DNA from: Yuukianura sp. NJ FZ-2021
Lineage: Eukaryota
Direction of reading: 5' to 3'
DNA length: 64,000 nucleotides
Assembly: GCA_046563655.1 (NCBI GenBank)
Contig: CM102286.1
Coordinates: 8,618,001 to 8,682,000 of the forward strand
Position numbers and translations under genes: made by a program. The notes beneath the pieces were generated by a model, which ran no database searches, was not told the DNA's origin, and worked only from the letters and a program-made list of their open reading frames with translations. This document shows positions 17,681 through 64,000 of the stretch, in pieces; position 1 is the stretch's first letter, and every line of letters starts with the position of its first letter.

Positions 17681-17682
17681 TG

Positions 17683-19245: not shown

Positions 19246-19299
19246 CAAGTTACTTCGAGTAACTGTTGAAAAACCCCCCCCCGCCCCTGACCCCCACCC

Positions 19300-19674: not shown

Positions 19675-19692
19675 CCCCCCCCCTTCCCAAAA

Positions 19693-25952: not shown

Positions 25953-25986
25953 TTTGTACTCATACTGTTCTTTTATTTATTTTTAG

Positions 25987-27174: not shown

Positions 27175-27239
27175 AGCCTCTGTCCCGCTGCCAGTCACCC
27201 GTGTGATGTCGCCGGGTCGGCTGACAGTCGTTGGGGACA

Positions 27240-34585: not shown

Positions 34586-35205
34586 CTGAAAATCCACAAA
34601 ATCAGTCTCACTTGACCCCAATTCCTTTCAAAAATTTTGCATTTGTTCAGTTTTCTCACGATCTTACGATAGCCCAGGTGAGTTTGAGTTTATTTCACTG
34701 CAAGTACCCGGCATGCAGGGCATTACACTTGAGTTTAAGTTGAGAAAAGATGTAAACTTTAGTTAATTAGTAGGTCAATGAAAACAAATATTGAAAAACA
34801 TGAGGCAATTTAAAAATAGTTACATTGGTAAAATTAAGATTAAAAGTTAAAATTATTTCACACAAAAGAATTGCTTAGGGTCGAGTCAAGACAGGACATA
34901 TTTGCTAGGTTTGAACTTTTTGTCGGTAGGGCGCAGATTATTTTAGCAATTGTAGGAATAAATGACTTTGAATAGAAACGTTTCTCATTCACACAAACGT
35001 AGGATCCGCTTCGTGTGGATTTTGTTTGTCTTAGGCAGTTTTCATTCTGTAAGGTGGTCTCCTGGAAGTATGGAACTTGGTAAAACTTCAACTTGGCAAA
35101 GACTTGAACCAGTTCAAAAAGATTGAGATGACTGGCCAGTAACCATTCAAGTTCATTGTTTAGTTTCTCCATAACGAGTGAGATCGGAGATCGGCGAGTA
35201 GAGGT

Positions 35206-35625
35206 ACTTGTGTAATCATAATTCGGTGGAAAAACTTGATTCTACGCAAAGACTGATATGAAATTGGTCGCGTTGTCGCTTCAAACTTTCAGCTGAAAAA
35301 TTTGACTGCATTAAAGAGCTGTGGAGGCTCATGGGTAGGCTGAAAAATTTATATTTTGTAGCGGTATAATAGAGGTTTGGTATCAATGTTTTTATCGTTG
35401 TAGTTTCACTCTAACTTTAGTATGCAACTCCCCATTGGTTACTTGTGTAATGATAATTCGGTGGAAAAACTTGGTTGTACGCAAAGCTTGATATGAAATT
35501 GGTCGCGTTGTCGCTTCAAACCTTCAGCTGAAAAATTTCACTGCATTAAAGAGCTGTGGAGGCTCATGGGTAGGCTGAAAAATTTATATTTTGTAGCGGT
35601 ATAACAGAGGTTTGGTATCAAAGGT
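35206..35625. repeat. Two-copy direct repeat with about 234-bp period
   Basis: TACTTGTGTAAT...GGTTTGGTATCAA at about 35206 and 35440. Confidence 0.8.
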
Positions 35626-35626
35626 T

Positions 35627-38600: not shown

Positions 38601-38770
38601 GCACTAACATACCATGCTCAACGTATTACCGCCAACATCTCGACGCGCTGAAATGTGGCGCCAATTGCGATTTATAGCAATGGGAGTGCAAAGGAACAAC
38701 TTGATATCTTTGACTAATTTGTTATTGCCGGGAGCCACAGGGGTATGTATGTATGGGGTCCTCCTGGCAA
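35627..38770. repeat. Satellite: about ten 222-bp monomers with a 753-bp higher-order repeat (2 x 222 + about 309 bp spacer, three copies)
   Basis: Identical spurious ORFs recur at 753-bp (36301/37054/37807) and 222-bp (38160/38382) spacing. Confidence 0.92.
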
Positions 38771-43440: not shown

Positions 43441-44407
43441 AACCTGTCACTAATTACATTGTTGCCATAACCTGTCACTAATTGCGTGTCAAAAATCAAT
43501 TGGAAAAGGGGGGAAACACGCCTCTCAGCTGTCTCGTTTTCTTGAAATAAGTTTTTTCGTTTTCGGACTCTACATAAATGGTGTACTCATTCGGGCCAGT
43601 AAAATTAAAGATAATTTTGACAATAATAATTTTTGGTTAATTTTGCGTTGAATACTGTTCGGGAATTTGCTTCCTGTTTGGCAGACAGGAATTAGGCTAC
43701 TAAGTTTAGTCTACCTTTAACTCTAGAATGGCTCTGGAAGAGATGAGACTGAAAGTGAAAGGGTTAGATTTACTTTTAGTGCTATTTACATTTACTCTGA
43801 TCCACTTGTGTGGAGTGAGAAAGGGTTAAGCGTGAATCTGGTTCTGCATGCAATTTACTACTGTAAGGACCTGCGCAGTGAGATAGTACAGTAAGTGTAA
43901 TTTCCAAGTAACCGCTCTCTTCACATTGCTATAGTGTAAGTCGCCGCTCTTTGGTGTATCTTTACTAATAGCATAAGCAAGGAGGAGTGTTCCTCCACTA
44001 TATTCATTCATACAACAGTCTTCTTCTCATCTTCCTACTGTAAGGTTCTCTTTCAATGAGTCATCGAGTAGCCATCTTAGCTTTTCCTTACTTTCATCTT
44101 TTACCAATTACTAATTAGTCAAAATAAACACTAAATCAAATCCACTTGACGTCAGAGCGGTCATCGATTATTTAGAACCACAAACATCAAGCATTCTACA
44201 GTTCATGGTCCTTCGAGTCGAGCATTGCGGTTGTGGATGGTCGTCTATCGTCATTTTTGGGTTTGACTAGTAACTTCCATTACTAGTACGGTAATTGGTT
44301 GACATAAATTGGTCATTTAGGATATAACATTGGTAAATTCGAATCGGTTGTGTTGATTCGAACGGGTTAACTGTTTGCCGTGTCAGTTTTATTCCATTTT
44401 TGCAGCA

Positions 44408-47400
44408 ATGGCTTATTATATGAAGTACGTGTCAGTACGCACAGCCATTAAGGGAAAGTTGTCTCGGATCCTGTCTGAATTAAATGCGGATGGAACGCAG
44501 TACACAGTACCCCAGCTACAAGTAATGGTGGACACGATCAAGCAGCAGCAAACCAAACTGGATGAAGTCCAATTGATGTTATTTTCCTACGTCAAGGAGG
44601 ATGACGAAATCGCTATTCAGTTGGAGGCTGGAGCGGTTGTTGAAGACTTAATTATGGCTTGTAATTTGCTTTTAGGTCAGAAAATTGCTGATTTGAAAGC
44701 AATTGATTCTTCTAAAGCTGTGGCTCCTCAGGCCAGTGGAAGTGGAACTACCAATCGTTTGGAGAACTGCGCCAAGTTGCCAAAATTGGAGTTGCCGACT
44801 TTTAATGGATCAATTGACCAGTGGATTGGCTTTCGTGACAGATTCACTGCAGTCATCAAAAATAACGATTCGCTCTCGCCGTGTGACAAACTCCAGTATC
44901 TCAAGTCCTGTCTGAAGGGTGAGGCTGGAAAATTAATCAATCATTTTACCATTTCAGATTTAAATTTCGATCCAGCATGGGAAGTGTTGCTGGCCCGTTA
45001 CAACAATGAAAGAGAAATCGTGTTCTCTTTAATTCAAAAATTCTTTGGAGTTCCAAAAGTAAGTGGAGGTAGTAACCTCGCACAGCGCCTGCGCGAAACT
45101 GTCGATTCTTTTTTGCAGATTCGTAAATTACTGCAGGCTATGGGACGCAAAGTCGAGGATTGGGATGATCTGATGGTCGTGCTTTTAGTTGAGAAGTTGG
45201 ACTCTGACACCACGTGAGGAGTGGGCAAAGTCACTTTCTGGAACCAAGATGCCGACGTTTGCTGATCTGGACAAATTCCTCGCTAATTATATTCCCAGTT
45301 TGTTTGCCTTTACTTGCAGTGAGAAAGTGAAGGAGAAACCTCAGACTCAGACGCAGGGAGAAACTAAAAATTCTCATTTGGCCAAAACGAAAGAGTCAAG
45401 CTGCCAACTATGTACTGATTCACATCCATTGTTCAGATGTCCGAAATTCGCAGGCCAAAAGCAGGAGGAGAAGCTGTCATTCCTCAGAAAGAACAACATT
45501 TGTTTCAACTGCTTATCCAGAGGTCACTGGACTGAGAAGTGCCGCTGGAAAGGGTCGTGCCGTAAGTGTGGTGAGAAACATAACACTTTAATTCACAGGG
45601 ATGATGATTAGGAGGGAAAGAGACAGGAATCAAAGACTGTCCAACAACCTAAGGTCGCTCAGCCCAGTCAGTCAAAATCGGTATCTGCCAATTTTGTAAG
45701 TGGAGTTGGTGTACTTCTGTCCACCGCAATGGTTGACATTGAGGACTCGTGTGGATCAAACCAACGTTGCCGTGTCTTCCTTGACAGTGGATCGGAAGCA
45801 TCATTCATCACTGAAAAATGTGTAAGTAAATTGGGACTTCAAAGACGTAAGTGTAACGTGGAAATTAATGGTGTTGGTGCCAATGGTGTAGCCAAAGCCA
45901 AAGGAAATGTTGAGTTTCGCCTAAAGTCATGTACTAATCAATTTGAGATCGATGTATGTGCTTTGATTTTACCAAAAGTTACAGGAAACTTGCCTTCTTT
46001 CACTGTGGGCTCAGAGTGGAAGTCATGGGATCATCTCGTTGGAGTGACCTTGGCTGACCCCAGATTTTACGAGCCACGAGAAATTGATGTACTGTTGGGT
46101 GCTGACGTTGTGGAGCATATTTTTCTGGACCGACGGATGACAGGAAGTCGTTTTGAGCCCGTGGCCCGCTTTAGTCACCTCGGTTGGATTCTCTCTGGTC
46201 CCGTGTCCAGTTCAGATGGAAGGGATAATGTGATGTCGTCCACTGTCAGTATCAAAGTACACTCCGCGTCCGTGGATTGCGAAGATGTTTTGCAACGATT
46301 CTGGGAACTGGAGAATGTTCCGAATCATCCCAATTGGACTCGGGAGGAGAAAGAGGCAGAAAACCACTTCGTAAATCATGTCCGTAGGGACAACGGAAGG
46401 TACGTTGTGGACATTCCGTTCAAATCTAACATTTCAGGTCTTGGAAAGTCGAGGGACATTGCTCTCAACCGTTTTTTCTCAATGGAGAGAAAGTTGGCCA
46501 AAGACCAGGAGCTCAAGGCTCAGTACGTGGACTTCATGAACGATTATCTGGCTCGAGGTCACATGGAATTAGTTCCAAAAGCAGAAGTTGGTGAGAAGGT
46601 TGGTGTGACTCACTATTTACCTCATCATTCTGTCCTGAAAGAGGATAGTCTGACAACGAAATTGAGAGTTGTCTTTGACGGGTCATGTAAGTCAACCACT
46701 AATTTGTCTTTAAACCAATGTATGCTGGTCGGACCCGTGGTACAGCCAGATCTTTTTACTCATTTGTTGAGATTTAGGTTGAAAAATGTTGCCTTAAAGT
46801 CTGACATCCAAAAGATGTACAGACAGTTTTTAGTCTCCCCTGCAGATTGTGACCGACAGAGGATCTTTTGGAGAGAGACTCGAAATCAACCAATTCTAGA
46901 GTACAGGCTGAAAACGATTACCTACGGGACAGCTTCGGCTCCATTTCTGGCCACCAGACTGTTAAATCAAATAGCAGACGATGGGAGCGAGCAATTTCCA
47001 AAGGCAGCTGAGACTCTAAAGAAGAATTTTTACGTTGATGACCTACTCGCCAGTTTCGATTCGGTTTCTGAAGCGATTGAGGTAAGACAACAGTTGGAAT
47101 CTGTTTTGTCTAGTGCTGGTCTTGTCCTATGTAAGTGGGACTCAAATGTGTCTGAAATTGTGTGTAATTCTGTGGAAAAGTCTAATCTCATTAATTTGAC
47201 CAAAAGTGACGTGTCAAAAGCGTTAGGAGTCCAGTGGGATTCCGTAGTCGATTGTTTCTCTTTTCCAGATTACAGATGTATCCAGAAGTCATTTACAAAG
47301 AGAGATCTCCTAAAGGAAATAGCGAGAGTCTTTGACCCACTTGGTTTCCTTTCTCCATTTACGGTTCGTGGGAAATTGATTTTTCAGAGTCTCTGGGCCC

Positions 47401-50400
47401 TTGACCGTGAAAGTGGTAAGAAAATGGAATGGGATTCTGTCATCCCCGATTCCATTTTCGAGGGGTGGAATGCCTGTCTGGAAGGCATGAGTAAGTTATC
47501 CATCCTGAAAATACCAAGGTTAATTGAAGAAGCCAGAACAAGAAGTACACCTATTTTTATTTTATTTAATTTTCTAATTCTGTTACCCAGGAGATTTTGG
47601 GAACGGATTGAAAAATAACATTCACGTACCACGCACAACACGCAAAACCCTTTACTTTTGGAGTACGGGGGTTTTCTATTTTACAAAATGGTAACAAAAT
47701 TTTGAAGCTTGTTTCGAAACGTAAGCATTGAATTTATGTGGAGCGGGCCAAAACAAGACAGCAAGAACAAGGACGTAGCTGGCAATATTGTGGAAATAAT
47801 TGGGGTGAAAGCAATAATGTCGCAATAAAGTCGCAGGAAGCATGCCTAAGAGAAAAAGATCGAAAAGTAGTAAGATCGCAAGTGCATGCGTCGCAATATG
47901 AAAAGGTCTGCATGTGAAATGGTCGCAATAGAAGCTGGTCGAAACGTAAATATTGAAAAGTAAAACCAATCAGAAAAAACTCTGAATTTGGAGAAAAAAA
48001 ATCAGATAGCCCGAGAGTTTAAACGCCGTGAAATAGAGTAACCTAAGCCGGAACGAATCGTCCAAATGGCAAACCTAGTAATATATTAATCTAGCGAAAA
48101 TCTCAGATGTTGCCAAACGCGAATTTGGAAGAAAATGTTAAACCGATGTCTGCGGGGGTTAAGGAAGGCAACGCAATTATTGTGAAAACATTTCCGGTCG
48201 CACGTGAAATTTGGCGCCGCTGGTAGAGAATGGCGACATCAGCGAATTTCGTCGCAGCAAGCGCAAGAGCATTATGGAACTGCATGATCTGTTGTTATAT
48301 TTATTGTAGTAAAATCTTACTTCACGAATGACTACTTTCGCAATACGTTATGTGATATCGGATAAGCATACGACCAAAAATCGGCGACGAAATTCGCCCA
48401 TTATCGCGCTGAACGGTGTGACCATCAAATTTGCTATATAAATTTATAAACTTTAAACATGAGCTATATATATTTTAATAGATGTTGCCTCGCGAATGGC
48501 CACATTCTTAACGCGAAATTGCGGATGGGAGCGAGAAAAGTGTCATAATTCCACATGTGTCGCGTGACTTCAGCTGGCAATAAAATCTGATTCTCGTGAA
48601 AATGTTGCCATTCACTACACGCAATGCCAACTTTCGACTGCGACTGGAAATGACGTCGCGGTTCTATAGTTGTCCAAAATTCGTGAATGTCGCGATGTGA
48701 AATTTTCAACACCTGCTAAAAACCCAGATTTCCCTTTTTCGGTGATCTCTGTTTTGTCAAAAATGTCAAAAACCCATTTTTTACTGGATAGTAGAACCTT
48801 TTGTCAGGCAGGCAGTGAAAAACTCTGATCTCAAAATTCAAAATTTCATAATTCAAAATTTTGATTAAACTTTTGCGGTGGAACGATTCGTCCACGTTAG
48901 GTGAAGACGGGTTCCCTTTCATTCGGACATTCCCCTCCTTTGGGTGACGTAATTTGTGAACTGTAGTTTTTCGAAACAAAATTTCGGTTCAAACCAAGAT
49001 GCACCAAAAAATAAACAATTAAATTTTGAGAAATAAAAATAGGTGTACTTCTTGTTCTGGCTTCTTCAATTGTGTGTCATAACTTGTACGAATTCCATGG
49101 CTTCTGTGATGCGTCCGAAAGGGCGTATGGAGCAGTAATTTACTTGCGTTCCTTTAGTTCACCAATTTCAGTCCGACTTGTAGCCGCTAAGACGAAAGTG
49201 GCACCTCTCAAGGCCCAAAGTCTCCCAAGATTGGAATTATGTGGTGCCTTACTCTTATCCAGACTAATGACCGCGGTGGTGACAGCGACTGAGCTACAGT
49301 GTCCAATACACTGTTGGAGTGACAGCGAAATTGTGCTGAAATGGATCTCCTCACCATCACGTAGGTATGCTAATTTTGTTGCCAACAGAGTTTCAGAGAT
49401 ACAGCAGGCAGTCCCATGGAGTCGTTCCATTTCGTTCCTGGAATAATCAATCCAGCAGACTGTGCCAGTCGTGGTATGTCTGTAGAAGAATTGGCGACAT
49501 TTGACTTGTGGTGGACTGGTCCTGACTTTCTACGCCTACCAGGAATCATTAACTTCCAATTTGAAAAGGAAATTGACAAGGAGAAACTGGAGGAGCGTAA
49601 GACAATATTGGTTGCTCATAATGATTTATTTAAGTCCATTTTAGACAGGTTCTCAAGTACTGGAAAGCTCATCCGTGTCATGGGATACGTGTTGAGAGTC
49701 TTTGCCAGAGATAAGAAGCCGAAACTCTTGCCATTGTCAGCTGATGAGTTGCAGATTGCACTGGAGAAGTGTATTTGGCTCAGTCAGTCTCGGAACTTTG
49801 AAGTGGAGATTGATCGGCTCAAGAGAGGAAAGAAGGTAAAAGTGTCAAGTCGAATTGTGTCACTTAATCCTTTTTTAGATTCCAATGGACATTTAAGAGT
49901 CGGTGGGAGACTCCAGAAGGCACTGGTAAACGACAGTGTCAAACATCAATTCATTTTGGATGGAAGATCCAACTTCGTGAAGCGCCTTGTGGAACATTAC
50001 CACAACAAGTTACATCATGCTGGAGCGATGCTGCTGACATCTGAGCTCAAGCAACAATTTTGGATCCTAAGGGTGAGAAATTGTGTAAAGTTTGTCTTAA
50101 GATCATGTGTTAGGTGCAAACGGATTCGTGGAGTTGCTTGGAAGCAACTAATGGGTAATCTCCCGGAGGCCAGAGTCCGTCCAGCAGCAGTCTTTGAAAG
50201 AACTGGCGTTGATTACTGTGGACCATTCAAACTCCAATCGATTGGCGGAAGAGGAATGAAGCAATTCAAAGCGTACATTTCCGTCTTCGTCTGTTTCGTT
50301 GTGAAAGCAATTCACGTGGAGGTGGTCACTGACTTGTCAACTGAAGGATTCCTAGGAGCCTTCAAACGATTCATTGCCAGGAGGGGTAAACCAATTCACA

Positions 50401-51170
50401 TGTATTCGGATTGTGGTAGTAACTTCGTTGGCATGGACAATGAGTTACGTAATTTAATCTCATCTGAGGAATTTAACCATGATCTTTACGAGACTTTAGC
50501 AAACGATGGGGTTACATGGCACTTTAACCCACCTGAGGCTCCACATCAAGGTGGATTGTGGGAGTCCGCGGTAAAAAGTGTGAAATTCCATTTGAAATCA
50601 ATAATTGGTTGTGACATGTTAACGCTTTCTGAGTTTGACACAGTTTTGTGTCAGGTGGAAGCTATTCTTAATTCCAGGCCCTTATGTGAACTGACTGAAG
50701 ACCCTGATGATCTAGAGGCACTTACTCCTGCTCATTTTCTCATTGGACGTTCGTTAGTTGCCATTCCACAAAAGAACTACGAAGAGATTCCCATGAATCG
50801 TTTGTCCAGATGGGAACGGCAGGAAAGAATCAGCCAAACATTCTGGAGAAGATGGACAAAGGAGTACTTGGCTGCATTACAGCAACGTGTGAAGTGGCAA
50901 CGGCCCATTGAAAACATCAAAGTTGGCGATTTGGTAGCAATTGTGGACGAGGATTTACCCACACTGAAGTGGAAGTTAGCCCGTGTCATTGAAATTCATC
51001 CTGGAGAAGATGGATTAGTTCGTGTCGTCACATTGAAATCAGCAACTGGAGTCTACACTCGTCCAGTAGTGAAAGTCGTCCCTCTGCTGAAATCTACTGA
51101 ATTGGAACCATCAGCTGAACATTTAATCTGGATCCAGCAACGTGAATCCAAGATACGTAACAAAGAATAA
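44408..51170 (+). pseudogene. BEL/Pao gag-pol polyprotein, disrupted
   Basis: KLPKLELPTFNG gag motif, three Cys/His knuckles, FLDSGSEAS protease, YVDD RT, HGFCDAS RNase H, integrase GVDYCGP/SDCGSNF/GGLWE; frameshifts near 45200 and 49420, stop at 45611, insertion at 47526. Confidence 0.92.
47526..49067. mobile_element. Non-autonomous TIR element with 4-bp AATT TSD (Sola-like) inside BEL pol
   Basis: TIR GAAGAAGCCAGAACAAGAAGTACACCTATTTTTATT at both ends; removal restores [21 protein letters not shown]. Confidence 0.85.
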
Positions 51171-53119
51171 AACTAGTTACTTTTAATCTTTTAATCATAG
51201 GATATGAACATTCAATAATTTTAAGTTTAGTTTGTAAGTCAGGGACTTGCCAATTTTAAATACTAATTTCACTTTCTTTTATTTTTGATTTCCAGCTGCA
51301 GCAGAAAGCAAATCGACATGTCGGATTTTGGTTTTCTTTACTCCTTCAGGGAGACGGACTTGACAGTGACAGTTGCTTCAAATCATTTCAAATCTTCTTG
51401 CCTCAGTGAAGGTTCATTCGCAAATTGAGCTTACCCTTAGTTCTGACGGGGAAGGGAGTGCTTCTGGCTTCCTTATTAGCTCACCCGATCACTGAGGTCC
51501 CATTCTGTTTCATTTCTGTTTAGCAAATGTCAAGTGTCATGGTCCTTAATTTAATTTTAATTTCTGGAATGACAGAGTGACTCTGTCATTGCCGGGCGGC
51601 ATGTTCGGGAATTTGCTTCCTGTTTGGCAGACAGGAATTAGGCTACTAAGTTTAGTCTAACTTTAACTTTAGAATTGCTCTGGAAGAGATGAGAATGAAA
51701 GTGAAAGGGTTAGATTTACTTTTAGTGCTATTTACATTTACTTTGATCCACTTGTGTGGAGTGAGAAAGGGTTAAGCGTGAATCTGGTTCTGCATGCAAT
51801 TTACTACTGTAAGGACCTGCGCAGTGAGATAGTACAGTAAGTGTAATTTCCAAGTAACCGCTCTATTCACATTGCTATAGTGTAAGTCGCCGCTCTTTGG
51901 TGTATTTTTACTAATAGCATAAGCAAGGAGGAGTGTTCCTCCACTATATTCATTCATACAACAGTCTTCGTTTCATCTTCCTACTGTAAGGTATTCTCTT
52001 CTAATGAGTCATTGAGCAGCCATCTTCACTTTTCCTTACTTTCATCTTTTACCAATTACTAATTAGTCAAAATAAACACTAAATCAAATCCACTTGACGT
52101 CAGAGCGGTCATCGATTATTTAGAACCACAAACATCAAGCATTCTACAGTTCAAATACCCTCATTGCTTGCAGTGTCGGAAGGTACAAATGTATCCATCC
52201 GGTGGGTACAATGGGTGGGGCCAATTACAGCGGCGCGAAAATTGGAAAGGGTGGGTGTGTTCAATCGTTGCGCCCAAGTTTACCTCGACCAAAGGTGGCG
52301 ATGAGTCGAATTTATTGTTTTGAAACTATATAGTAAAACCGAATATTTTCAGTGACGATTGCATTGTAAGACATATCGTAGTTTTCAGAAGTAGTTCCCG
52401 AGTTCTTTTTACTTTTTTTTGAATCTCTCGGCGCGAAAGTGAAAAAGTGAGAGCCAACTCAACTAAACTTGAGTCGGTTAAATGAGAACAAGATCCTGTG
52501 ATCTCGCTGTTTCGACAATCTCGATCCAAAGTCTTATTTAACGTTTAATTAGTACCGATTAACTAATTGAAATTTTATAAGCTATAATTGAATTGACCCT
52601 GAATCAATACCTAACCATCTCCTACTTGTCCACCACCTGGATCCTGACTGACAGTCAACCCCCCTGAAGTTATGAGCATCATAAGCCCTCATATTGGTAT
52701 TGGTAAAGTTTCAGTTAATGATTAATTTTACTAAACTTTGTCGGTGGTCATTTTTAACTATCAACAAACTGCACTTCGTCACTTGAAACAACTTGGAGTC
52801 TACAGAAGAAGTCTTCCTGGAAACACCGATACCACTTTTGCCAGTGCTCGGGAGGTAAACGATCAAATTTTTGCTACTTTTCGTTCAGTACGCATTTTTG
52901 GACAGATTCACGCCTCAGCTGCTTTGTATCGGTAGACGGGCAAATATAATCATCGTACATCATTCAGAAGTAAGAGCTCTATCCAAACCATCAATAGCCA
53001 TAACTGATCTGACCCCGTTAACAGTGAATTAATCGGTTAACGCATCACATCTGAAATATCCTTGTATCTGAGGAATAGTCACCCCCAACACCTTTTCTGA
53101 CATCCCGATTCAGGGAACC

Positions 53120-53690: not shown

Positions 53691-53829
53691 AGGGAACCCT
53701 GCCTAATCCTCCGACAACCTAAAATCCCGATTCTGGGAACACTATCTAATCCTCCGACAAGCAGATATCTCATCTTCTCAATCCTCGCATCCCGCGTTTA
53801 AATCTCCGATTCAGGAGTTACCTTGAAAA

Positions 53830-54115
53830 TTTCCAATTTAAGGAATTCTCACTTCAGAGATCTGTCAAAAACAATTTCCAATTAAGGAATACTCGCTGCA
53901 GAGATTTGTCAAAAACAATTTCCAATTAAGGAATTCTCGCTTCAGAGATTTGTCAAAAACAATTTCGAATTAAGGAATTCTCGCTTCAGAGATTTGTCAA
54001 AAACAATTTCCAATTAAGGAATTCTCGCTTCAGAGATTTGTCAAAAACAATTTCCAATTAAGGAATTCTCGATTCAGAGATTTGTCAAACAATTTCCAAT
54101 TAAGGAATTCTCGCT
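53830..54115. repeat. 44-bp tandem repeat in the LINE 5' region
   Basis: TTCCAATTAAGGAATTCTCGCTTCAGAGATTTGTCAAAAACAAT about six times. Confidence 0.9.
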
Positions 54116-54183
54116 AAAGAGAGAACTAGACGACTTCCACTACTGTTCTGCTTTGGAACTCTGATCTCGGCCAATACAGCAAG

Positions 54184-55622
54184 GTGATGCCAATCTCACG
54201 ATCCCCCACTTCCCAGAAGATGTCCCAAACGACTCTGCCGTTCACCCCACAAAACAAAGGAAGTAAGCGAGCTGCCGAGTCGGATCCAAACGCTGGAATC
54301 GAACCATCTTCAAAAAGATCAAACTTCTCGAACGACGATATGATGGAGGCTATAACAAAAATGTTTGGAAATATCGAAAAAAAATCGAAAAAATCGATAC
54401 AAAAATCGAGAACGTAGAAGCAAAGATTGACACGAGGTGTGACTCAATCGAACTCAAACTCGAGAAATACCAAGAACAAATTGAAGAACTACAAACGAAA
54501 CCCGAGATGCAACAAAAAGAAATTGATAAACTGAAAAAACTCAACTCCCGACTAACTGACGAACTTAGGCAAAACAACGTTCTGATCCACGGACTCCCAG
54601 AAGCTACAAGTGAAAACACAAAGAACATTACCAACGACTTCTTCCACCATTACCAAGTTCGTGTCGATGTAGAAGATGCTGTTAGGATCGGAAAATTCAA
54701 CGCTTCGTCAGATAAACCGCGTCCAATTAAAGTGCGCATCTCTACCTACGCGCAACGTATGCAAGCCCTCCAACTGCGGAAGACACTCATTCAAAACAGG
54801 GATGTCTACTCTATCACTGAAGATCTAACCGCTGAAACCAGAATGGAAAGGCAAAAGAGCTGGGAATTACGACAAAATGTTCAAGGTAGTCGCCTCCGCG
54901 CACCTGCTCCATCGACTATTGCAGTTGGTAAAACCTTCGCTTCTGCCACGCGATCCTCCTTCCCAACCCCTAAATGAGAACACGGCCGCCCTATCAACGC
55001 ACTCCAGACAAACCAGACTCAAAATTTCGATACATCATCATGCAGCGACCACAATTTAAAAAACATGACAATATTTTACTTGAATGCAAAAAGTGTAAAC
55101 AACCTAGGACCAACCATCTGGAATGAATTCCTCTCACTTAAGCCCTCTATATTCTGTTTCTCTGAATCAATGCAATGGGAAAATTACAAAAACCACAAAC
55201 TACAACAGTCTTACTCTATCCATCAAATCCCTGCCAAAAAGAAGAGCCAAGGACGTCCATACGGCGGGTTTATTTTTGGTTGGCACAATTCATTCGTCCC
55301 TAAAGTAACAGTTCTGTCTACAACTGATCACTCAATCCAACTACACATTCAGGACCGTACACCACATTCCCAGCTCTTATTCACCTACACTCCACCAGAC
55401 AAGGCCAATCAAAGACTAGTATCAGAATCTCTCCAATTTGCCAAATTCACCAACATTCTGGTGCTGATAATGGGGGACCTCAACTCGAGGACGGGCGAAA
55501 GAAACTCCACACCACTAATAAAAAGGACAAGCAAGGACACATTGGTAAATGGAAACGGTAGAAACCTAAGTAGAGTGATATCCACCCAAACGGAACCACT
55601 TATCATAGCTCACGATGACTGA
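54184..55622 (+). mobile_element. 3'-truncated LINE (CR1/L2-type ORF1, frameshifted near 54380, and APE endonuclease start of ORF2)
   Basis: ORF1 coiled coil plus RQNNVLIHGLPE, RIGK, PRPIKV, ITEDLT; ORF2 IFYLNAKS, FCFSES, MGDLNSR, NGNGR; no RT. Confidence 0.85.
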
Positions 55623-55710
55623 GGACCTATGCGCCAAAAATGTCAACAAGGATGAATGTTAATGAATGAAAAACAGCGACAAAAATGTCGACAACCAAAA
55701 AGTTTAGTTG

Positions 55711-55894
55711 ATTGAATGGCTTCGCGGAAAAAGGGTTAACTAGAATTTGGTTTTGCTGTTTCCAAGGGATACCAAGATCTAGAATTCTATTTCAAGGCTA
55801 AAGTGCATGCACTTTTTTTTGTTGATAAATAAGTTTTTGAAAATGAAATTTTCAACGATTTCGAGTTAACCCTTTTTCCGCGATACCATTCAAT
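55711..55894. repeat. Short inverted repeat / mini-MITE
   Basis: ATTGAATGG..TCGCGGAAAAAGGGTTAACT / AGTTAACCCTTTTTCCGCGA..CCATTCAAT. Confidence 0.65.
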
Positions 55895-56347
55895 TGTCAG
55901 TTAAAGTTAATTGACAAATGTCAATGACCCTGTATGCCCGGAAAAGGTATTGGAATGTGACCCCAACCTTTTTCCGGATTAGGATGTATATTTTTGTACT
56001 TTCCAGAATTTCGTCTTTATACCTACAACGACAAAGTTTAAAAGTTTTCGAGTTGGAACTTTTTAAACTTTTTCGTTTTACGAACAAATATGATATTCTC
56101 AACAGGAAAATTCGGAGAATTTACAAGTCAATGTTATTACTATTTTTGAAGTTCTTGGAAAAATGTCTTCTCTCAAGAAAAACGTTTTTTTTTCTTGAAA
56201 AGTTCTCAAAATAACATTTCTTTAGAAAAAAAAAGCGGTTTTGAAAAATTTCAAAATAGCATTTCAAACGTTGTTCCAAGTAGTACTTAAACAGCGAGTT
56301 TTGAGACTAGCAATCATAAGTTCTGAAACCAGTCTCAATCCGCAACC

Positions 56348-57135
56348 ATGACCGTGGAAGGGTTTCGACCTTATATGGAAGTTTTAACGCCATTTAGTGA
56401 CACGGAAGATGTCATCGGTATCAAGATTGCTGAACACTCAATTCTGCCAGCAGCAGAGGAACTCCCGACCGTGGTCAAAAACTGGTTAAAGCATACATCG
56501 AAGCTGGGAGAATGATGAAGGATCTTCCACATTTTGAAAGAATCATGGCAAGGAACCGCAAGAATGGATTCCTGAAGTTATTCCGAGTTCTAGAAAGACC
56601 ACAGGCATCGGAAATCCAAATAATGAAAGAAAAGCTCGATACGCCACTTCTTCCAATCCACTGCATAAAAAACGAATCAGACCAAGTGTTTCTTATTAGA
56701 AGCGGTGGTCCTCTCACAGTGAACATCAGTGATATTCCACTTCTGGTGGAATCGCTTCTAAAGTGTGTCTGCTTTCCTACTTCTTATCCGGAAAGGAATC
56801 TGGACGAGCATATTCATGAAACAAAGTGTGTTTTCCTCAATAAGCTGCGCAAGGAAGGCCTCAACACTTGCGCCAACAGAATTAAAAACAAGATTGGGAA
56901 AGTCGTAGGAGTGCATCCAGACAAGAAAATTCATCCGTACAAAAGTGAAAAACGAAGTATTTTTCAGCGATTTAATTACTGCTGTCCAATAGTTGATGAT
57001 ACTCTGAAGCCGCGCTATAGGATGCACATAACGGACGTTACCAAAGACCAACAGGAACGCATTAACAAATCAAGGATTGTTTCAGAAGGAGATTTTGGAG
57101 ATGCCAACTTGCCAACATCGAAAATTACCGATTAG
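56348..57135 (+). CDS. Intronless ORF of unknown function (207 aa from 56512; about 260 aa from ATG 56348 if a +1 frameshift near 56480 is corrected), convergent with the ATPase copy
   Basis: Long globular-looking ORF with AATAAA near 57271; no motif recognised. Confidence 0.5.
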
Positions 57136-57332
57136 CGCCATATTACTCTCAAGCCGTCCACATGATTGTTCATCATATTGAAAGAGATCATTCTGCATAT
57201 GACATGTTCTGTTAAACTGAATTTATGTCTATGTATTTAAGCATTTTTTTTGCGATGAGCGTTATGAAATAATAAAGAATTAAATATTTAAATAATTCTT
57301 AAGAAAGAAGAAAGAAATATGCACTTTTCTTT

Positions 57333-58532
57333 GGTTTTGGCAACTCCGTTGGCTTGTCTTCTTCCACGCTTTTCGGCTCAACTTCCAATGCTTTTGTGTT
57401 CTTCGAATCAACTGGCTTATGCGGTTCCACGTGTCATCCATTCTGGAATTGACGAAGAAGGGCATGGGGCATGTGGTTTTGAAGTTCAACCGATGTCCTT
57501 CCACTGTCGAGCTCATCGTTCAGTCGAGTAACTTCTTGCTTCAGCAAAGTTTTTTTGAGTCCCCAACATTTGTTTCAAATGGAATAGTTTCCTTTTTCTG
57601 TTCCATTGTCGGTATCCATAGAGATTTAACCTGTGACGTGTTGGAAGTCAATTTGTCATATTCTGCTTCCTCCAGCACCATGTATGGGCAAGTTTTGTCT
57701 TTCACGTAAACTTTGCACTTTTCAGGAAAAATGTTGTCTCTAATGCGAAATAAATCCTTCTGACGCTGTGTTAAATCTATAAAGAGGTATCCATAGTCTT
57801 TGGACATGCAATTTTTGTACGCAGTCTCCATTGTTGTATTTTTCTTTCCACCATTCATTTGACGGCCCAGGCAAGTCACAATCTGAGAGTCTCGAGGGTT
57901 CTTCATTAGAACCAAGTAATGGCAGTTTGCAGTAATTTCCTTCAAGTTCTTGTGAAAAAAGTTTTGCACAAGAATAATGAGCGATACATTGCGGTGATGA
58001 GATGTTCTAGTGAACGCAGTGCCAACTTCGGATTTTTTCCAACTTCATGCATTAAATCATCCAGCACAACAAGAGACGGTTTATCAGATCCGTCATGCCA
58101 TTTATCCAGGAGCCCTTGGTGAAACTTTATTTGAGGCATGGCATATTTGAGTTGTGCAAACAAATCTGGCTGCAATTCTGTATAACAGTATGTAACACGG
58201 TTGATTGATTCCCCTGTAGACGTCACGATGATTTCATTCCGACACAGGATGATTTCCTGAACCAGAGTACTTTTTCCGCTCTGCGTCATCCCGCTGATGC
58301 ACATCGTAAAAGGAGCACGTAAATGATGATCAAATGTTGCCCCGGATAACTCGTCCATAAACAGCGATGCTTTGACAGGCTCTTCCGACACATATTCGGC
58401 AGGAGTCAAGTGATAAGCAATGTTGTCGTTAACAGGAATGGGGGCTTGCGTAGTCTGGCATGTCGATTTGTGACGTTTAAAGTTATCCGACCGTCCAAAC
58501 TTTTTTGAACAACCTGAACAACTGTATTCCAT
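57333..58532 (-). pseudogene. Frameshifted, C-terminally deleted copy of the zinc-finger plus packaging ATPase gene
   Basis: Same protein as 61197-62924; 1-bp losses near 58035 and 57550; homology stops after ELPKP. Confidence 0.88.
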
Positions 58533-58759
58533 TTTTATAGTCACTACGGCAAGGTGTTTACGGTCTGTGAATCCGTTGTAACTGATTTTCACTCAGCGAG
58601 AAAAAGAGAGATAGAGAGAGAGAATATATCTTGTCCCCTTCTAATCTTTGACTGAATGAATTCTCCATCGGCGTATAGGACTTATACTCCTCCTCATCCT
58701 GCTTCTCAGACAACCCAACAGCACGTTTCAACTCCTCACTCCTCTTCCTCTTCCATCTT

Positions 58760-59060
58760 CTCCTCAGATAACTAAAAGCATACCTATATTCCTCCTCCTC
58801 CTACTCCTCAGATAACTGAAGAGCATGCCTATACTCCTCCTCCTCAAATAGCTCAAGAGAATGCCTATACTCCTCCTCCTCAGATAGCTCAAGAGCATGC
58901 CTATACTCCTCCTCCTCAGATAGCTCAAGAGCATGCCTATACTCCTCCTCCCCAAATAGCTCAAGCGCGTGCCTATACTCCTCCTCCTCAGATAGGTCAA
59001 GAGCATGCCTATACCCCTCCTCCTCGGCCGAAGAGCTTACCTATACTCCCCCTCCTCCTC
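58760..59060. repeat. 36-bp tandem repeat (mirror copy at about 59735-60035)
   Basis: CTCCTCCTCCTCAGATAGCTCAAGAGCATGCCTATA units. Confidence 0.9.
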
Positions 59061-59149
59061 CTCAGTCCACGCGCATGCCATCACCCATTACCTAACCTAA
59101 CCTAGCCTATCCTTACGGCATCCTACTGGAATCATTTTATTCTATTACA

Positions 59150-59400
59150 CTGTACTTCAATCAATTACACTGGAATTTTCTAAAACTGCTTTGTAATTTC
59201 AATCAACTACACTGGACTTTACTCAAGCTGTTTTGTAATTTCAAAAAATTGCACTGGACTTTTCTAAAACTGCTTTGTAATTTCAATCAACTACACTGGA
59301 CTTTACTCAAACTGCTTTGTAATTTCAATCAACTACACTGGACTTTACTCAAACTGTTTTGTAATTTCAACCAATTACACTAGACTTTTCTCAATTGCCG
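59150..59400. repeat. About 42-bp tandem repeat (shorter mirror array at about 59520-59645)
   Basis: CAACTACACTGGACTTTACTCAAACTGCTTTGTAATTTCAAT units; about six left, three right. Confidence 0.85.
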
Positions 59401-60256
59401 TGGTATTTCCACATTAATACGTTGCACTTGCGTAATGCTATGCTTCCCACTTCAGCTACAACGTGCTAACACGAGTTAGCGCGTCCAAACCAAATTTGAC
59501 TTAGGGTGGAAATACCCCGGCAATTGAGAAAAGTCCAGTGCAATTTTTTGAAATTACAAAACAGTTTGAGTAAAGTCCAGTGTAGTTGATTGAAATTACA
59601 AAGCAGTTTTAGAAAATTCCAGTGTAATTGATTGAAGTACAGTGTAATAGAATAAAATGATTCCAGTAGGATGCCGTAAGGATAGGCTAGGTTAGGTTAG
59701 GTAATGGGTGATGGCATGCGCGTGGACTGAGGAGGAGGAGGGGGAGTATAGGTAAGCTCTTCTGCCGAGGAGGAGGGGTATAGGCATGCTCTTGAGCTAT
59801 CTGAAGAGGAGGAGTATAGGCACGCGCTTGAGCTATTTGGGGAGGAGGAGTATAGGCATGCTCTTGAGCTATCTGAGGAGGAGGAGTATAGGCATGCTCT
59901 TGAGCTATCTGAGGAGGAGGAGTATAGGCATTCTCTTGAGCTATTTGAGGAGGAGGAGTATAGGCATGCTCTTCAGTTATCCGAGGAGGAGGGGAGGAGG
60001 AGGAGTATAGGCATGCTTTTAGTTATCTGAGGAGAAGATGGAAGAGGAAGAGGAGTGAGGAGTTGAAACGTGCTGTTGGGTTGTCTGAGAAGCAGGATGA
60101 GGAGGAGTATAAGTCCTATACGCCGATGGAGAATTCATTCAGTCAAAGATCAAAAGGGGACAAGATATATTCTCTCTCTATCTCTCTTTTTCTCGCTGAG
60201 TGGAAATCAGTTACAACGGATTCACAGACCGTAAACACCTTGCCGTAGTGACTATA

Positions 60257-61194
60257 AACAAGGTAGGGCGATGCTCAAGGGTTGAGCATAGGTCTTCTGG
60301 AGGGAGTTGACAATTGATACGACATGTAGACCGGCCTACCGCAAAACTGTAGACGAACTGAGAAACCGTTTTCATGGAATTGAAGCTCTAAAACGTTGCT
60401 AAAAATTTTCAGTGCAAATATGAGATCCTATTTTGTGCATGAGTTGCACCAACATTGTCTTGACAATTTTACCGGTTATTTAAACCAAAATCATGTTAAA
60501 GCTTTGAGGCCCAAAATACCTGCTCTGAATTGTTGTTAAATTGGTGTGCACAAAATGCACAAAATTGAACGCTTAGAAGGAGTCAAATATCATTCTTGAT
60601 TGATGTTCTTAATTTGTTGAAGAAGATGCACATAATGCATTGTCGATGTTGTCATGGCAATGCTCAGGGTAGTTCTCAAACCTACACAAACCTTCAATTG
60701 TGTGCATCATGCACAAAATTGACGTTGATAGGAATAGTCGAAAGTGGTTTCTTTAAAATCAAAACCAAAAATTCCTTGTGAATGCAATTTTGACCCATTT
60801 CATTCACTATTCACATATTAAACATTTAAGCCGGATTTTCTACCCTCTAACTAGGCTTAAATTAACAACGTAAATTAACATATTGTCGGAAAATGAGCAG
60901 ATCAAAACTTCGTTGTTAAAAAATATTTTGAGTACAATCGAGACCAAAAATGTTTTGCGGAGCCACGATACTGCGGGTACGTAAAGTAGCCGCATACTTT
61001 GGCGTTGTTAATGTACGACTTTAAGTGAAATGTAGAGCTAATGAAAATACTTGAGCCATACATAACCCCCCGACTGCGATGTGGCTAATGTTTCAGTGGG
61101 AAGAGTCCTAAAAAACGTTACAGACGGACAGACGGACAAAGTCGTATCAATAGTCTTCTTCAGCACGTCGTAGACGTGCGTCTCCAGAAGACTA
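60257..61194 (+). mobile_element. HINE/DINE-1-like element inserted directly before the ATPase start codon
   Basis: Same termini as 39844-40909; the empty site GACTATAAAAATGG is present in the left palindrome arm. Confidence 0.85.
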
Positions 61195-61196
61195 AA

Positions 61197-62924
61197 ATGG
61201 AATACAGTTGTTCAGGTTGTTCAAAAAAGTTTGGACGGTCGGATAACTTTAAACGTCACAAATCGACATGCCAGACTACGCAAGCCCCCATTCCTGTTAA
61301 CGACAACATTGCTTATCACTTGACTCCTGCCGAATATGTGTCGGAAGAGCCTGTCAAAGCATCGCTGTTTATGGACGAGTTATCCGGGGCAACATTTGAT
61401 CATCATTTACGTGCTCCTTTTACGATGTGCATCAGCGGGATGACGCAGAGCGGAAAAAGTACTCTGGTTAAGGAAATCATCCTGTGTCGGAATGAAATCA
61501 TCGTGACGTCTACAGGGGAATCAATCAACCGTGTTACATACTGTTATACAGAATTGCAGCCAGATTTGTTTACACAACTAAAGCATGCCATGCCTCAAAT
61601 AAAGTTTCGCCAAGGGCTCCTGGATAAATGGCATGACGGTTCTGATAAACCGTCCATCGTTGTGTTGGATGATTTAATGCATGAAGTTGGAAAGAAATCC
61701 GAAGTCGGAACTGTGTTCACTAGAACATCTCACCACTGTAATGTATCGCTCATTATTCTTGTGCAAAACTTTTTTCACAAGAACCTGAAGGAAATTACAG
61801 CAAACTGTCGTTACTTGGCTCTGATGAAGAATCCTCGAGACTCTCAGTTTGTTGCTTGTTTGGGCCGTCAGATGAATGGCGGAAAGAAAAATACAACAAT
61901 GGAAACTGCTTACAAAAATTGTTTGTCTAAAGACTATGGATACCTCTTCATAGATTTAACCCAACGACAGAATGATTTGTTTCGCATTAGAGACAATATT
62001 TTTCCTGAAAAGTGTAAAGTTTACGTGAAAGACAAAACTTGCCCGTACATGGTGCTAGAGGAGGCAGAATATGATCAGCTGACTTCGAATAAACCACGGT
62101 CCAAATCGGTATGGATGCCGGCAGTGGAACAGAAAAAGGAAACGGTTCCGTCTGAATCATATATGAGCGACGCAAAAAGAAATTTGATGAAAAGAGAAGT
62201 AACTCAACTACACGACGAGTTCAACAAGGCAAATACATCAGTTGAACTTCAAAACCACATGCTCCATGCCCTCCTTCGTCAATTTCAGGATAGACGAAAC
62301 GTGGAACAGCCAAAGCAAGCTGATTTGAAAGATACAAAAGCAATTGAAGTTGAGGCGAAAGGCATCGAAGAGCACAAGCGGAAGGAGTTGCCAAAACCGA
62401 TTCCGGAACAAAAAAACTTTAATTTTTTATACTTTCCAAAACCAGGACGCAATCTCCTTCAACTTTTTGTGAATAACGGAGCAATCTTACAAGGAGAAAC
62501 TGTCGCTTTCGGTGGTGAACAAATGCAACGATGCGACTTTGAAGACGGAATTCGTGTTCTTAGTGATGGCAGGCGCAGGCTAAATAGTTCATTGTTTGCG
62601 GGAATGATTCAGTTTATGAAATCCCGCAAATTTCCAATACATGAATTACCGGAGGCAAGACAATACCTGTTTCAGACGTTTCAAGGGATGAATCCCAGAA
62701 AGAAGAGACGTATTGTGGAGGATTCTTCCTCTAGCACAAGTGAAGAAGAAACTCCCAGCTCGAGTGATGGTGAAGAAGAAGATGATGACGCAGAGAACGA
62801 GAGCGATCAGGAAAATGCAGTTCATGATGAGCCTGAAAACGAACAAACTGGACATGGGAAAATTGATGATCGCGATGAAGCCTTATATCGCTTTTATTCT
62901 CGCGGGCAACATATGTACCGTTAA
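61197..62924 (+). CDS. 575-aa C2HC zinc finger plus A32/FtsK-HerA-type DNA-packaging ATPase (Polinton/Maverick-type) with long C-terminal extension
   Basis: YSCSGCSKKFGRSDNFKRHKSTC; Walker A GMTQSGKS, Walker B VVLDD, SHH...ILVQNFF, KNPRD, LGRQ, YGYLFIDL; intronless; AATAAA at 63061; first 7 aa of the ORF-track call are HINE-derived. Confidence 0.85.
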   Translation: MEYSCSGCSKKFGRSDNFKRHKSTCQTTQAPIPVNDNIAYHLTPAEYVSEEPVKASLFMDELSGATFDHHLRAPFTMCISGMTQSGKSTLVKEIILCRNEIIVTSTGESINRVTYCYTELQPDLFTQLKHAMPQIKFRQGLLDKWHDGSDKPSIVVLDDLMHEVGKKSEVGTVFTRTSHHCNVSLIILVQNFFHKNLKEITANCRYLALMKNPRDSQFVACLGRQMNGGKKNTTMETAYKNCLSKDYGYLFIDLTQRQNDLFRIRDNIFPEKCKVYVKDKTCPYMVLEEAEYDQLTSNKPRSKSVWMPAVEQKKETVPSESYMSDAKRNLMKREVTQLHDEFNKANTSVELQNHMLHALLRQFQDRRNVEQPKQADLKDTKAIEVEAKGIEEHKRKELPKPIPEQKNFNFLYFPKPGRNLLQLFVNNGAILQGETVAFGGEQMQRCDFEDGIRVLSDGRRRLNSSLFAGMIQFMKSRKFPIHELPEARQYLFQTFQGMNPRKKRRIVEDSSSSTSEEETPSSSDGEEEDDDAENESDQENAVHDEPENEQTGHGKIDDRDEALYRFYSRGQHMYR

Positions 62925-63257
62925 GTTATTATCTTCTTTTTGCCAACGCAGAGTACTTCATTTCAGTAGCCTCATATCCTGTATGTATTGTATGTCTATG
63001 AAGTGTACTTTCGAGTTACGTAACATGTTACTGTGTGTGTATATTCTAATGTTGAAAATAAATAAAGTCGAATCTAAAACGATTTTTCAATTTCTTCTTT
63101 TTTAAGTTATTTGAACATATATTTATTTTTACTAAAGTGGTCAACAATTCACAATTCAAAAACAACATGTTTTTCAAGTTTTAAGTTTTGAATTTTTGAG
63201 GAGACCCTTTTTTCAGGGGGGGTTAGGTTACAAGACTGTGGGGTACAAGACTGGCTA

Positions 63258-64000
63258 GGCTTCGTAATTTTTTCTTACTTAAATTTTGTGCTTAAAATGC
63301 ATGTCAGTTAAGATGAATAAAAAGGCAGTTAATTAACATTCTTAATTGAGACTCTCTACAAAGAATTCTGACGGTGGCAACATCTCCTTTCATGTCACTT
63401 GTACCTTGTTATGAATAGCAGTGGACCTGATACAGCTTTTGTGTAACGGTTTATCGCAGCCTAAGATTTCGTTCAAAAAAATATTTCTCCACATGTATGA
63501 AACGGCATATCATCAAAGTTCTCCACACGACATTTGGCAGCAGCAAGGAATATGTAATATTTTACTTGCTAACAACACTCTCTTGTTTCCACTTTATTTC
63601 GATAGCAGTTCAAATCTACGGTGTAAGTTGGGCTTCGTAATTTTTTCTTACTTAAATTTTGTGCTTAAAATGCATGTCAGTTAAGATGAATAAAAAGGCA
63701 GTTAATTAACATTCTTAATTGCGACTTTCTACAAAGAATTCTGACGGTGGCAACATCTCCTTTCATGTCACTTGTACCTTGTTATGAATAGCAGTGGACC
63801 TGATACAGCTTTTGTGTAACGGTTTATCGCAGCCTAAGATTTCGTTCAAAAAAATATTTCTCCACATGTATGAAACGGCATATCATCAAAGTTCTCCACA
63901 CGACATTTGGCAGCAGCAAGGAATATGTAATATTTTACTTGCTAACAACACTCTCTTGTTTCCACTTTATTTCGAAAGCAGTTCAAATCTACGGCGTAAG
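63258..64000. repeat. About 373-bp tandem repeat, two copies, running off the window
   Basis: GGCTTCGTAATTTTTTCTTAC at 63258 and 63631. Confidence 0.9.

Follow-up and report, generated by a model that had tools for sequence, protein, structure and literature searches.

The mirrored ATPase genes in the window analysed here, a 64,000-nucleotide stretch of Yuukianura sp. NJ FZ-2021 (GCA_046563655.1, contig CM102286.1, positions 8,618,001 to 8,682,000), belong to a family of non-autonomous Polinton derivatives, as evidenced through Polinton ends and 5-bp target duplications. The family is probably, at roughly 0.68, a helper-dependent Polinton/Maverick derivative with a snap-back genome that is palindromic over its whole body. 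An intact sister copy (C4:8,283,652-8,291,569) is a 7.9-kb palindrome within a 5-bp target duplication, and its arms of 3,799 bp are 99.76% identical. Each arm carries an ATPase fused to gene X, then ORF-T, then the terminus, which is the gene order of the right half of full Polintons, and the arm is colinear with the right half of the full elements at C3:7.457 Mb and C6:1.099 Mb. The genome as a whole thus consists of one parental end duplicated in inverted form, as in snap-back defective genomes.

A non-autonomous Polinton family with mirrored arms

AGTAG termini are found at 55,569 in the window copy, whose first five bases are identical to the sister termini, and at both ends of the sisters and of the full elements that are candidate helpers. 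Target duplications flank 19 of the 22 elements examined, five whole-body palindromes among them, and the mirror symmetry ends at the termini, with a flank mirror identity of 5-15 of 40 in 21 of the 22. These five were therefore already palindromic at insertion, since each stops precisely at a terminus on either side, inside a direct target duplication. A subterminal 23-mer is common to the full elements and most sisters (54 matches, control 0) and is absent from the window copy and from C4:8,283,652. The first-pass annotation had proposed a chance head-to-head junction of two elements, which does not hold for the family, as the sisters are single palindromes within one target duplication; for the window copy the idea survives only weakly, in that its outer arms derive from two lineages.

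The two arms of each element evolve in concert. Over the first 372 nt of the ATPase, the arms show 0-3 differences within each of four two-armed copies, whilst between copies there are 3-32, with 28-32 separating the window copy from all others, and the C1 copy has a TA-site transposon at the identical site in both arms. Loops are not alike from one copy to the next, and most copies carry broken ATPase genes. Mirrors of the left half, with pPolB facing pPolB, are present at C3:13.25 Mb and C9:1.27 Mb, and two related pPolB-only palindromes are 86-95% alike. A 26-kb mirror at C10:443,439-469,620 has the same core without AGTAG ends or a target duplication, and counts against the proposal of a snap-back genome.

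Integrase, pPolB, capsid and protease genes are absent from both the window element and the intact sister. The search for pPolB, capsid and integrase beyond the window that had been suggested earlier did find them in full Polintons elsewhere in the genome, though not in the palindromic element. These full elements are 17 kb long, and those at C3:7.457 Mb and C6:1.099 Mb encode pPolB motifs, an rve integrase (E 4e-10), a major capsid protein and a protease homologue. The polymerase is assigned from motifs, Pfam, NCBIfam and PDB sequence searches having given it no name, and the capsid protein from the names of its homologues, a single-sequence model (pLDDT 31) being useless. The ATPase of the mini-elements is ~70% identical to that of the helpers and groups apart from it in the tree (support 91/86 and 93/90, neither starred), and therefore the family did not arise recently by deletion from the extant helpers.

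With Polintons/Mavericks (polintoviruses, animal adintoviruses) the family shares AG-type ends, the 5-bp target duplication, the A32/FtsK ATPase, gene X and gene order. It differs in being about 8 kb rather than 13-25 kb long, in having no pPolB, integrase, protease or capsid, in the fusion of the ATPase to X, and in inverted repeats of 3.8 kb that span the whole body and hold the genes; for Polintons, target duplications of 5-8 bp and inverted repeats of 100-1,500 bp are given in part of a preprint (10.1101/2023.08.22.554363). Type A two-gene mini-Mavericks of the same genome share the termini, a sister ATPase clade, an X homologue and long inverted repeats, but their centre is unique, with one ATPase opposite a separate gene that contains X, their repeats are different, and the 36/42-bp core is missing. 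One of them has captured the ORF-T arm end.

The copy in the window

The extent first given, 57,333-62,924, is too narrow, since the left end of the element lies at 55,569 and one more ORF falls inside it (Table 1). The giant palindrome claimed for it is real as regards the mirrored arms, but it is imperfect and its right arm is split by a 937-bp insertion. The inner inverted arms (58,534-59,268 and 59,524-60,258) are 97.8% identical over 737 bp and the outer arms (57,333-58,535 and 61,194-62,398) 89.8% over 1,205 bp, with identity falling from ~99% near the start codons to ~80% distally.

The central features described earlier were all recovered, namely the 93-bp spacer (59,413-59,505) between 35-bp inverted repeats, the iterated 42-bp and 36-bp repeats on both sides, and the short TAACC runs, of about three CCTAA/TTAGG units per side. 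A telomeric reading of these runs was ruled out by the small number of units and their internal position. The centre folds far better than its shuffles (z -10.0; 0 of 200 shuffles as good). The 42-bp repeat has 53 pattern matches genome-wide, at seven loci that are all Polinton derivatives (control 0), and the 36-bp repeat is also present in the loops of the two pPolB-only palindromes. Several frames are open in the 36-bp array, which has neither a start codon nor a protein family and is taken as non-coding. There was no look-alike of the central core in the other DNA windows compared.

Table 1. Features of the palindromic element and its surroundings, in positions of the window
Feature	Position	Strand	Remarks
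Host LINE, ORF1 and endonuclease start; insertion target, outside the element	54507..55568	+	Match to 13 LINE homologues ends at 55,567-55,568
Left terminus (AGTAG...) and terminal-repeat region	55569..56348	+	Matches TIR regions of C4:8,283,652, C5:855,707 and C9:1,272,341
MITE-like 185-bp insertion, 35-bp inverted ends	55711..55895	.	Inside left terminal region; 92% match at C3:6,949,104
ORF-T, conserved, inward-pointing, here in three broken frames	56349..57210	+	95% DNA identity to C5 and C1 copies
Left zinc finger-ATPase-X copy, broken	57333..58532	-	Frameshifts near 58,036 and 57,552; ends early, at 57,333
36-bp tandem array, 7.3 copies	58798..59057	+	Degenerate units reach back to about 58,690
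CCTAA run, about 3 units	59090..59109	+	Read from sequence
42-bp tandem array, 5.7 copies	59156..59394	+	Repeat present at 7 loci
Symmetry axis	59378..59540	.	93-bp spacer, with homologues at 5 further loci, between 35-bp inverted repeats
42-bp tandem array, 2.7 copies	59524..59636	-	
36-bp tandem array, 7.3 copies	59735..59992	-	
937-bp secondary insertion, right arm only	60257..61193	-	3 bp upstream of ATG
Intact 575-aa gene: C2H2 finger, packaging ATPase, gene X, acidic tail	61197..62924	+	
Possible right terminal-repeat remnant of another subfamily, weak	63165..63220	-	77% over 56 bp to C9:542,790 TIR region, E 4e-4
373-bp satellite cutting off right end	63258..64000	+	Continues 53 kb up to assembly gap

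Two later insertions are present. The 185-bp one is skipped in contigs of runs X1-X3, and the 937-bp one, which we take to be DINE-1/Helentron-like, has short inverted repeats, a hairpin and a GTCY microsatellite, sits between two T without a duplication, and has other copies at 39-41 kb of the window and a very high contig depth. Neither a right terminus nor a target duplication was found in the 60 kb downstream, where the satellite ends in an N gap, and the LINE has no matching continuation near the right side. That neither feature could be found in this copy, and that its outer arms are unequal, counts against the proposal. The window copy is best read as an aged mosaic, with inner arms recently equalised, two later insertions, and its right end lost in satellite. 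As had been stated, no recognisable pPolB, capsid or protease ORF stands among the 33 listed ORFs of the window, which were inspected by eye; the integrase-like frames within it belong to LTR retrotransposons.

The ATPase-X gene and ORF-T

The head-to-head genes do face outward, each with C2H2 and ATPase frames, but only the right one is intact. Its 575-aa product has a C2H2 finger at residues 5-25, an A32/FtsK-type ATPase at about 62-290, a fused Polinton gene X (E 7e-18 for the homology) and an acidic tail. Walker A, Walker B and an arginine-finger region lie at residues 81, 154 and 176, as located with motif patterns. The earlier assignment to the Polinton-type packaging ATPases was borne out by Pfam (Pox_A32, E 1.6e-4, with a score of 21.7 under the 22.8 cutoff), by a fold search (best match STIV2 B204, Z 14.7, rmsd 2.9, 168 residues aligned, with VirB4 within 1 Z) and by a viral structure library, in which adenovirus IVa2 and A32 ATPases were the top matches. 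The fold search with the fusion protein was filled by ATPase-domain matches and speaks only to that part; for gene X, 215 candidates of comparable length yielded no sequence homologue, and Atlas matches were all <0.9. Between the outer arms, the ATPase core differs at 29 synonymous and 12 non-synonymous codons among 160. Two metagenome contigs from other organisms (P0004, P0005) also carry ATPase-X fusions. The metagenome contigs (24 loci) are mostly 1-5 kb, a length at which a palindrome would not be visible, and an inverted repeat was absent from all 23 with a good ATPase match.

ORF-T encodes 292 aa in intact copies, has 45 matches in the genome and is 63% identical in full Polintons. Pfam and PHROG held no family for it, Atlas no usable match, and the searches no outside homologue, whilst a profile search gave four matches, repeat-like only. 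The annotation of a new non-autonomous element thus had the right class, a non-autonomous Polinton family, but an ATPase-only element it is not, as the ATPase is fused to a second Polinton gene and accompanied by ORF-T.

Origin of the mirror symmetry and its meaning

Under the snap-back proposal, the helper's protein-primed polymerase would start at either end and displace one strand, which, being self-complementary, would fold into a long hairpin. A strand broken or stalled beyond the central inverted repeats could prime on itself and copy its own arm, so that a change arising in one arm is carried over to its partner, and the helper's integrase would insert the resulting duplex. The central 36/42-bp module may act as a fold-back seed that is swapped between derivatives; an iteron-like centre had been one suggestion, but an origin there is not supported, as the repeats are absent from type A minis and full elements, both of which are multi-copy. 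The hairpin is more likely an intermediate form than the end of the genome. No extrachromosomal or hairpin form was seen, and no contig piece among those listed crosses the centre.

Palindromic phi29 mini-genomes and symmetrical adenovirus minichromosomes offer parallels among protein-primed replicons, and in Tetrahymena rDNA a giant palindrome forms from a short inverted repeat, a palindrome that is host-programmed, telomere-capped and unrelated in sequence, an analogy only. A hairpin derivative of the kalilo plasmid has been reported (cited in part of PMC11161782), and in phi29 template switching yields subgenomic molecules derived from the ends, mostly the right one (PMC4974454, in part). 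These derivatives likewise duplicate one end in inverted form and rely on the parental polymerase, whereas the present family is integrated in an animal genome, multi-copy, old and gene-bearing, with a common central module. Copy-back or snap-back defective genomes, whose complementary ends are copied from one terminus and which depend on a helper (according to a portion of PMC6140465), are mainly those of RNA viruses and short-lived, whereas the family is DNA, inherited and under purifying selection.

It is unlikely that the family is an established satellite or a member of a complementing set, that is, an old lineage whose own ATPase-X motor redirects helper capsids, beside polymerase-only and capsid-only minis. 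This would agree with the separate grouping of the mini-element ATPases, the synonymous excess between arms, the metagenomic ATPase-X fusions and the two pPolB-only palindromes. Complete helpers are, however, present, making complementation between minis unnecessary, the ATPase is broken in most copies, and the stretches that were read contained no element with integrase alone or protease alone. Such a satellite extends the snap-back explanation more than it contradicts it. Its boldest form, which we hold to be fairly unlikely, is an old, expressed satellite of animal Polintons encoding its own packaging motor, in which the central module is a transferable fold-back seed making captured Polinton halves self-symmetrising, and ATPase, polymerase and single-ORF mirrors may complement one another as a proto-multipartite virus.

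Ordinary, internally deleted Polintons may instead have been made and kept palindromic on the chromosome, where foldback repair would act on the central inverted repeat and gene conversion between the arms, without hairpin replication. Palindromes can indeed be equalised by chromosomal arm-to-arm gene conversion (PMC7953838, in part), identity in the window copy drops away from the axis, and the C10 mirror lacks Polinton ends. Host foldback repair, however, would mirror host flanks or leave one end without a terminus, and the five mirrors bounded by exact termini and direct target duplications make a chromosomal origin quite improbable.

A fold-back chimera or misjoin in the assembly is highly improbable. 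Palindromes are prone to misassembly (again from part of PMC7953838), the locus adjoins satellite and a gap, and no read spans the centre, but divergence between the arms reaches 20% and is biased towards synonymous changes, the 937-bp insertion is in one arm only, and other loci, whose flanks are unique, show the same architecture. Contigs of run X1 also carry sequence specific to the left arm at 57,273-57,674 (0 differences) and right-arm sequence at 62,384-62,649 (2 differences), although these runs may stem from the assembled sample and so not be independent of the assembly. The integrated concatemer junction of a poxvirus- or N15-like hairpin-telomere replicon, akin to the hairpin-ended intermediate of the first-pass annotation, would account for the head-to-head symmetry and the iterated repeats near the axis, but is largely refuted already and can hardly be correct, given open AGTAG Polinton termini with target duplications, helpers that encode a protein-primed polymerase, loops that vary between copies, and elements in which no ORF resembling a resolvase or protelomerase was seen.

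The window copy is degraded and non-autonomous Polintons are already known, which tempers the finding, whilst a literature search, in which subscription papers were thinly covered, found no palindromic or snap-back Polinton. Knowledge of Polinton replication comes almost wholly from in silico work, with gene content as the basis of inference, and a whole-body mirror with its arms in step is a rare clue to how Polintons are copied. Integrated snap-back genomes of both halves, together with concerted arms, are the footprint expected of protein-primed strand displacement, and the molecules implied would be linear, protein-capped, fast-renaturing DNA of 6-13 kb. The recurrence of the ATPase-X fusion suggests that X is a partner in packaging, and the family shows that helper-dependent Polintons can hold viral genes under selection over a long time.

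A mirrored Polinton derivative and its fusion protein

The palindrome described in the first-pass annotation is real, its arms aligning as inverted copies, and the spacer of 93 bp agrees with that description, as do the tandem arrays on either side of it, with 5.7 and 2.7 copies of the 42-bp unit and 7.3 copies per side of the 36-bp unit; the centre folds with a z of -10.0 against 200 shuffles. Of the two mirrored ATPase genes reported there, only the right-hand copy is undamaged (575 aa), the left being frameshifted twice and truncated. The right arm holds an insertion that had been overlooked, with further copies within the window, which we take to resemble a DINE-1/Helentron-type element. 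Since the match to LINE homologues ends at 55,568 and AGTAG comes directly after, the element starts at 55,569. The 373-bp satellite near the right end extends over 53 kb at 98–99% identity, with retroelement insertions, and ends at an assembly gap (N), beyond which lies a different, shorter satellite.

The 575-aa protein carries a C2H2 finger (residues 5–25), a packaging ATPase (about residues 62–290; Pfam Pox_A32 E 1.6e-4, slightly below cutoff) and a C-terminal half homologous to gene X, a separate 218-aa gene in full Polintons (29%, E 7e-18). The best fold match of its predicted structure (mean pLDDT 70) is STIV2 B204 (Z 14.7, rmsd 2.9, 168 aligned), with VirB4 tied at 13.9, and in a viral structure library the model matches adenovirus IVa2 and A32 ATPases. 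Two metagenome proteins, P0004 and P0005, are comparable ATPase-X fusions. A 3,868-bp metagenome contig (L106) has an ATPase-X fusion facing a 380-aa frame and a GGT tract at its upstream end; its layout is like one palindrome arm, the contig being too short to reveal a mirror.

Related elements in the same genome

Mapping of the genomic copies gave 106 matches to the ATPase, with further head-to-head pairs at C4:8.286 Mb, C1:4.526 Mb and C10:0.553 Mb. The intact palindrome on C4 has arms of 3,799 bp (99.76% identical), each reading terminus, inward ORF-T (a further conserved gene), outward ATPase-X and repeats. A C5 copy has lost most of its second arm and two sister elements half of the core of repeats and spacer, the latter being consistent with the instability of perfect palindromes.

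The polymerase, capsid and integrase genes that the annotation could not recognise in the window are all present in full elements, or helpers, which share the family's ends and, with most of its members, a subterminal 23-mer (54 matches, control 0). They encode polymerase motifs, integrase, a protease homologue and a capsid protein with homologues named F54H12.2-like or major capsid protein, the nearest named one being 44% identical. The palindrome arm is colinear with the right half of these elements, in the order ATPase, X, ORF-T, terminus, and lacks the integrase, protease and capsid genes. Left halves are mirrored as well, in two elements that read terminus-polymerase-polymerase-terminus and are 86–95% alike, and a third type is a 6-kb palindrome with one 256-aa frame of no assigned function per arm.

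The 42-bp repeat pattern has 53 matches at 7 loci (control none), namely five ATPase-X copies, the single-frame mirror and the loop of a 26-kb mirror, and the 36-bp repeat is present in the loops of both polymerase mirrors too, where it adjoins a CCN tract found at the helper ATPase start. A contig of run X1, which may derive from the very sample that was assembled, has a joint with letters fitting the C3 fold-back point. The core is absent from the full elements read and from type A minis (two-gene mini-Mavericks, ATPase facing a separate X-containing gene), and is therefore not required as an origin. Among the termini of the elements compared, AGTAG and the downstream 23-mer are constant and bases 6–30 differ strongly, also between one end and the other within C5:2,110,284 and within C9:1,272,341.

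Positions of features; bare coordinates are those of the window, and C-numbers are contigs of its genome (G000), C4 carrying the window
Feature	Position	Remarks
Host thioester-protein gene	16,351-32,918	alpha-2-macroglobulin-like; Pfam TED E 2e-51; split by the next feature
Gypsy-type LTR element	about 17.2-27.7 kb	long open gag and pol frames
222/235-bp tandem arrays	35,205-38,750	
BEL/Pao-type LTR element	44,055-52,153	in pieces
44-bp tandem array	53,828-54,122	
ORF-T	56,349-57,210	broken copy; 292-aa gene without known family
Gene-bearing arms	57,333-58,535 / 61,194-62,398	89.8% over 1,205 bp
Inner arms	58,534-59,268 / 59,524-60,258	97.8% over 737 bp
Insertion in right arm	60,257-61,193	937 bp
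Putative right terminal-repeat remnant	63,165-63,220	weak match, E 4e-4; cut short by 373-bp satellite
373-bp satellite	63,258 to C4:8,734,314	
Intact palindrome	C4:8,283,652-8,291,569	7,918 bp
Full elements	C6:1,099,481-1,116,207; C3:7,456,823-7,473,760	about 17 kb
Polymerase-only mirrors (L071/L072; L073/L074)	C3:13,248,785-13,259,198; C9:1,272,341-1,285,124	5-bp target duplications
Single-frame mirror (L060)	C4:5,640,198-5,646,245	type A 21-bp repeats and 42-bp core; some type A minis have this frame in their terminal repeats
Inverted duplication (L056-L059)	C10:443,439-469,620	26 kb, 99%, another Polinton clade; 42-bp core in 3-kb loop; AGTAG ends and target duplication absent at mirror limits
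Type A mini (L049)	C4:11,360,768-11,367,916	identical inverted repeats of 2.4 kb, each of which has captured the palindromic family's ORF-T arm end
Other Polinton clade (L061, L063)	C11:374.5-376.4 kb; C3:3,585-3,587 kb	two diverged, converging ORF-T paralogues

Arm equalisation and descent

In the opening 372 nt of the ATPase coding sequence, arms within an element differ at 0, 0, 1 and 3 sites, against 3–32 among elements (28–32 between the window copy and every other), and both arms of the C1 copy contain a TA-site transposon with an identical starting point (731 bp, 99.3%). Thus, arms have been equalised lineage by lineage. Those of the window copy differ at 1/360 nt over the inner 120 codons and at 43/480 nt over codons 121–281, 29 of these at third positions (29 synonymous vs 12 non-synonymous codons), with no synonymous bias over codons 301–400, where X starts (12 vs 41). 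By the bias in codons 121–281, the outer arms derive from two lineages, each under selection, which makes the window copy a recombinant.

The ATPase phylogeny proposed in the annotation was run on 37 uninterrupted segments of at least 190 aa, with broken copies excluded. The ATPases of the palindromes fall into one starred group (100/99), whose sister group is that of the type A minis (93/90, not starred), with one metagenome fusion grouping with the minis (91/86); helper ATPases, about 70% identical to those of the palindromes, are set apart (100/100). As judged from these sequences, the palindrome lineage is not a recent deletion product of an extant helper, the deeper branching order being uncertain.

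Origin of the mirrors

With a probability of about 0.68, we infer that the palindromes arose by strand fold-back and helper-assisted insertion. A protein-primed polymerase would initiate replication at the element ends, the inverted repeats at the centre would let a displaced or broken strand fold onto itself and copy its own arm, and the duplex would be inserted by a helper integrase. Palindromic phi29 and adenovirus mini-genomes replicate via hairpins, and a kalilo plasmid derivative is reportedly hairpin-forming. The Polinton polymerase bears its own terminal protein (PMC11161782), so replication should begin at the ends, and in phi29 template switching yields end-derived subgenomic molecules (PMC4974454).

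The elements may instead constitute a true satellite or complementing set, which would agree with their age, selection and fusion; we give this a low probability. Slightly less plausible is chromosomal gene conversion between arms, which could account for their equality but fails for mirrors bounded by a pair of termini and a single target duplication. Such a duplication, of 5 or 6 bp, was found in 19/22 elements with both ends at hand, five end positions having been set manually inside the terminal AGT repeat; the remaining three are C4:8,917,946, C1:4,620,055 and the 26-kb C10 mirror. An assembly artefact is very improbable, since mirror symmetry ends at the termini in 21/22 elements and a fold-back read artefact would not stop there, and a hairpin-telomere replicon is just as improbable.

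No paper on palindromic Polintons was found in the literature listings searched; supplements or Repbase entries may list such elements. Published Polintons have inverted repeats of 100–1,500 bp and duplications of 5–8 bp (10.1101/2023.08.22.554363), compared with the 3,799-bp arms of the intact C4 palindrome. New to the group are gene-bearing arms, mirrors of both Polinton halves, a common fold-back module and the ATPase-X fusion.
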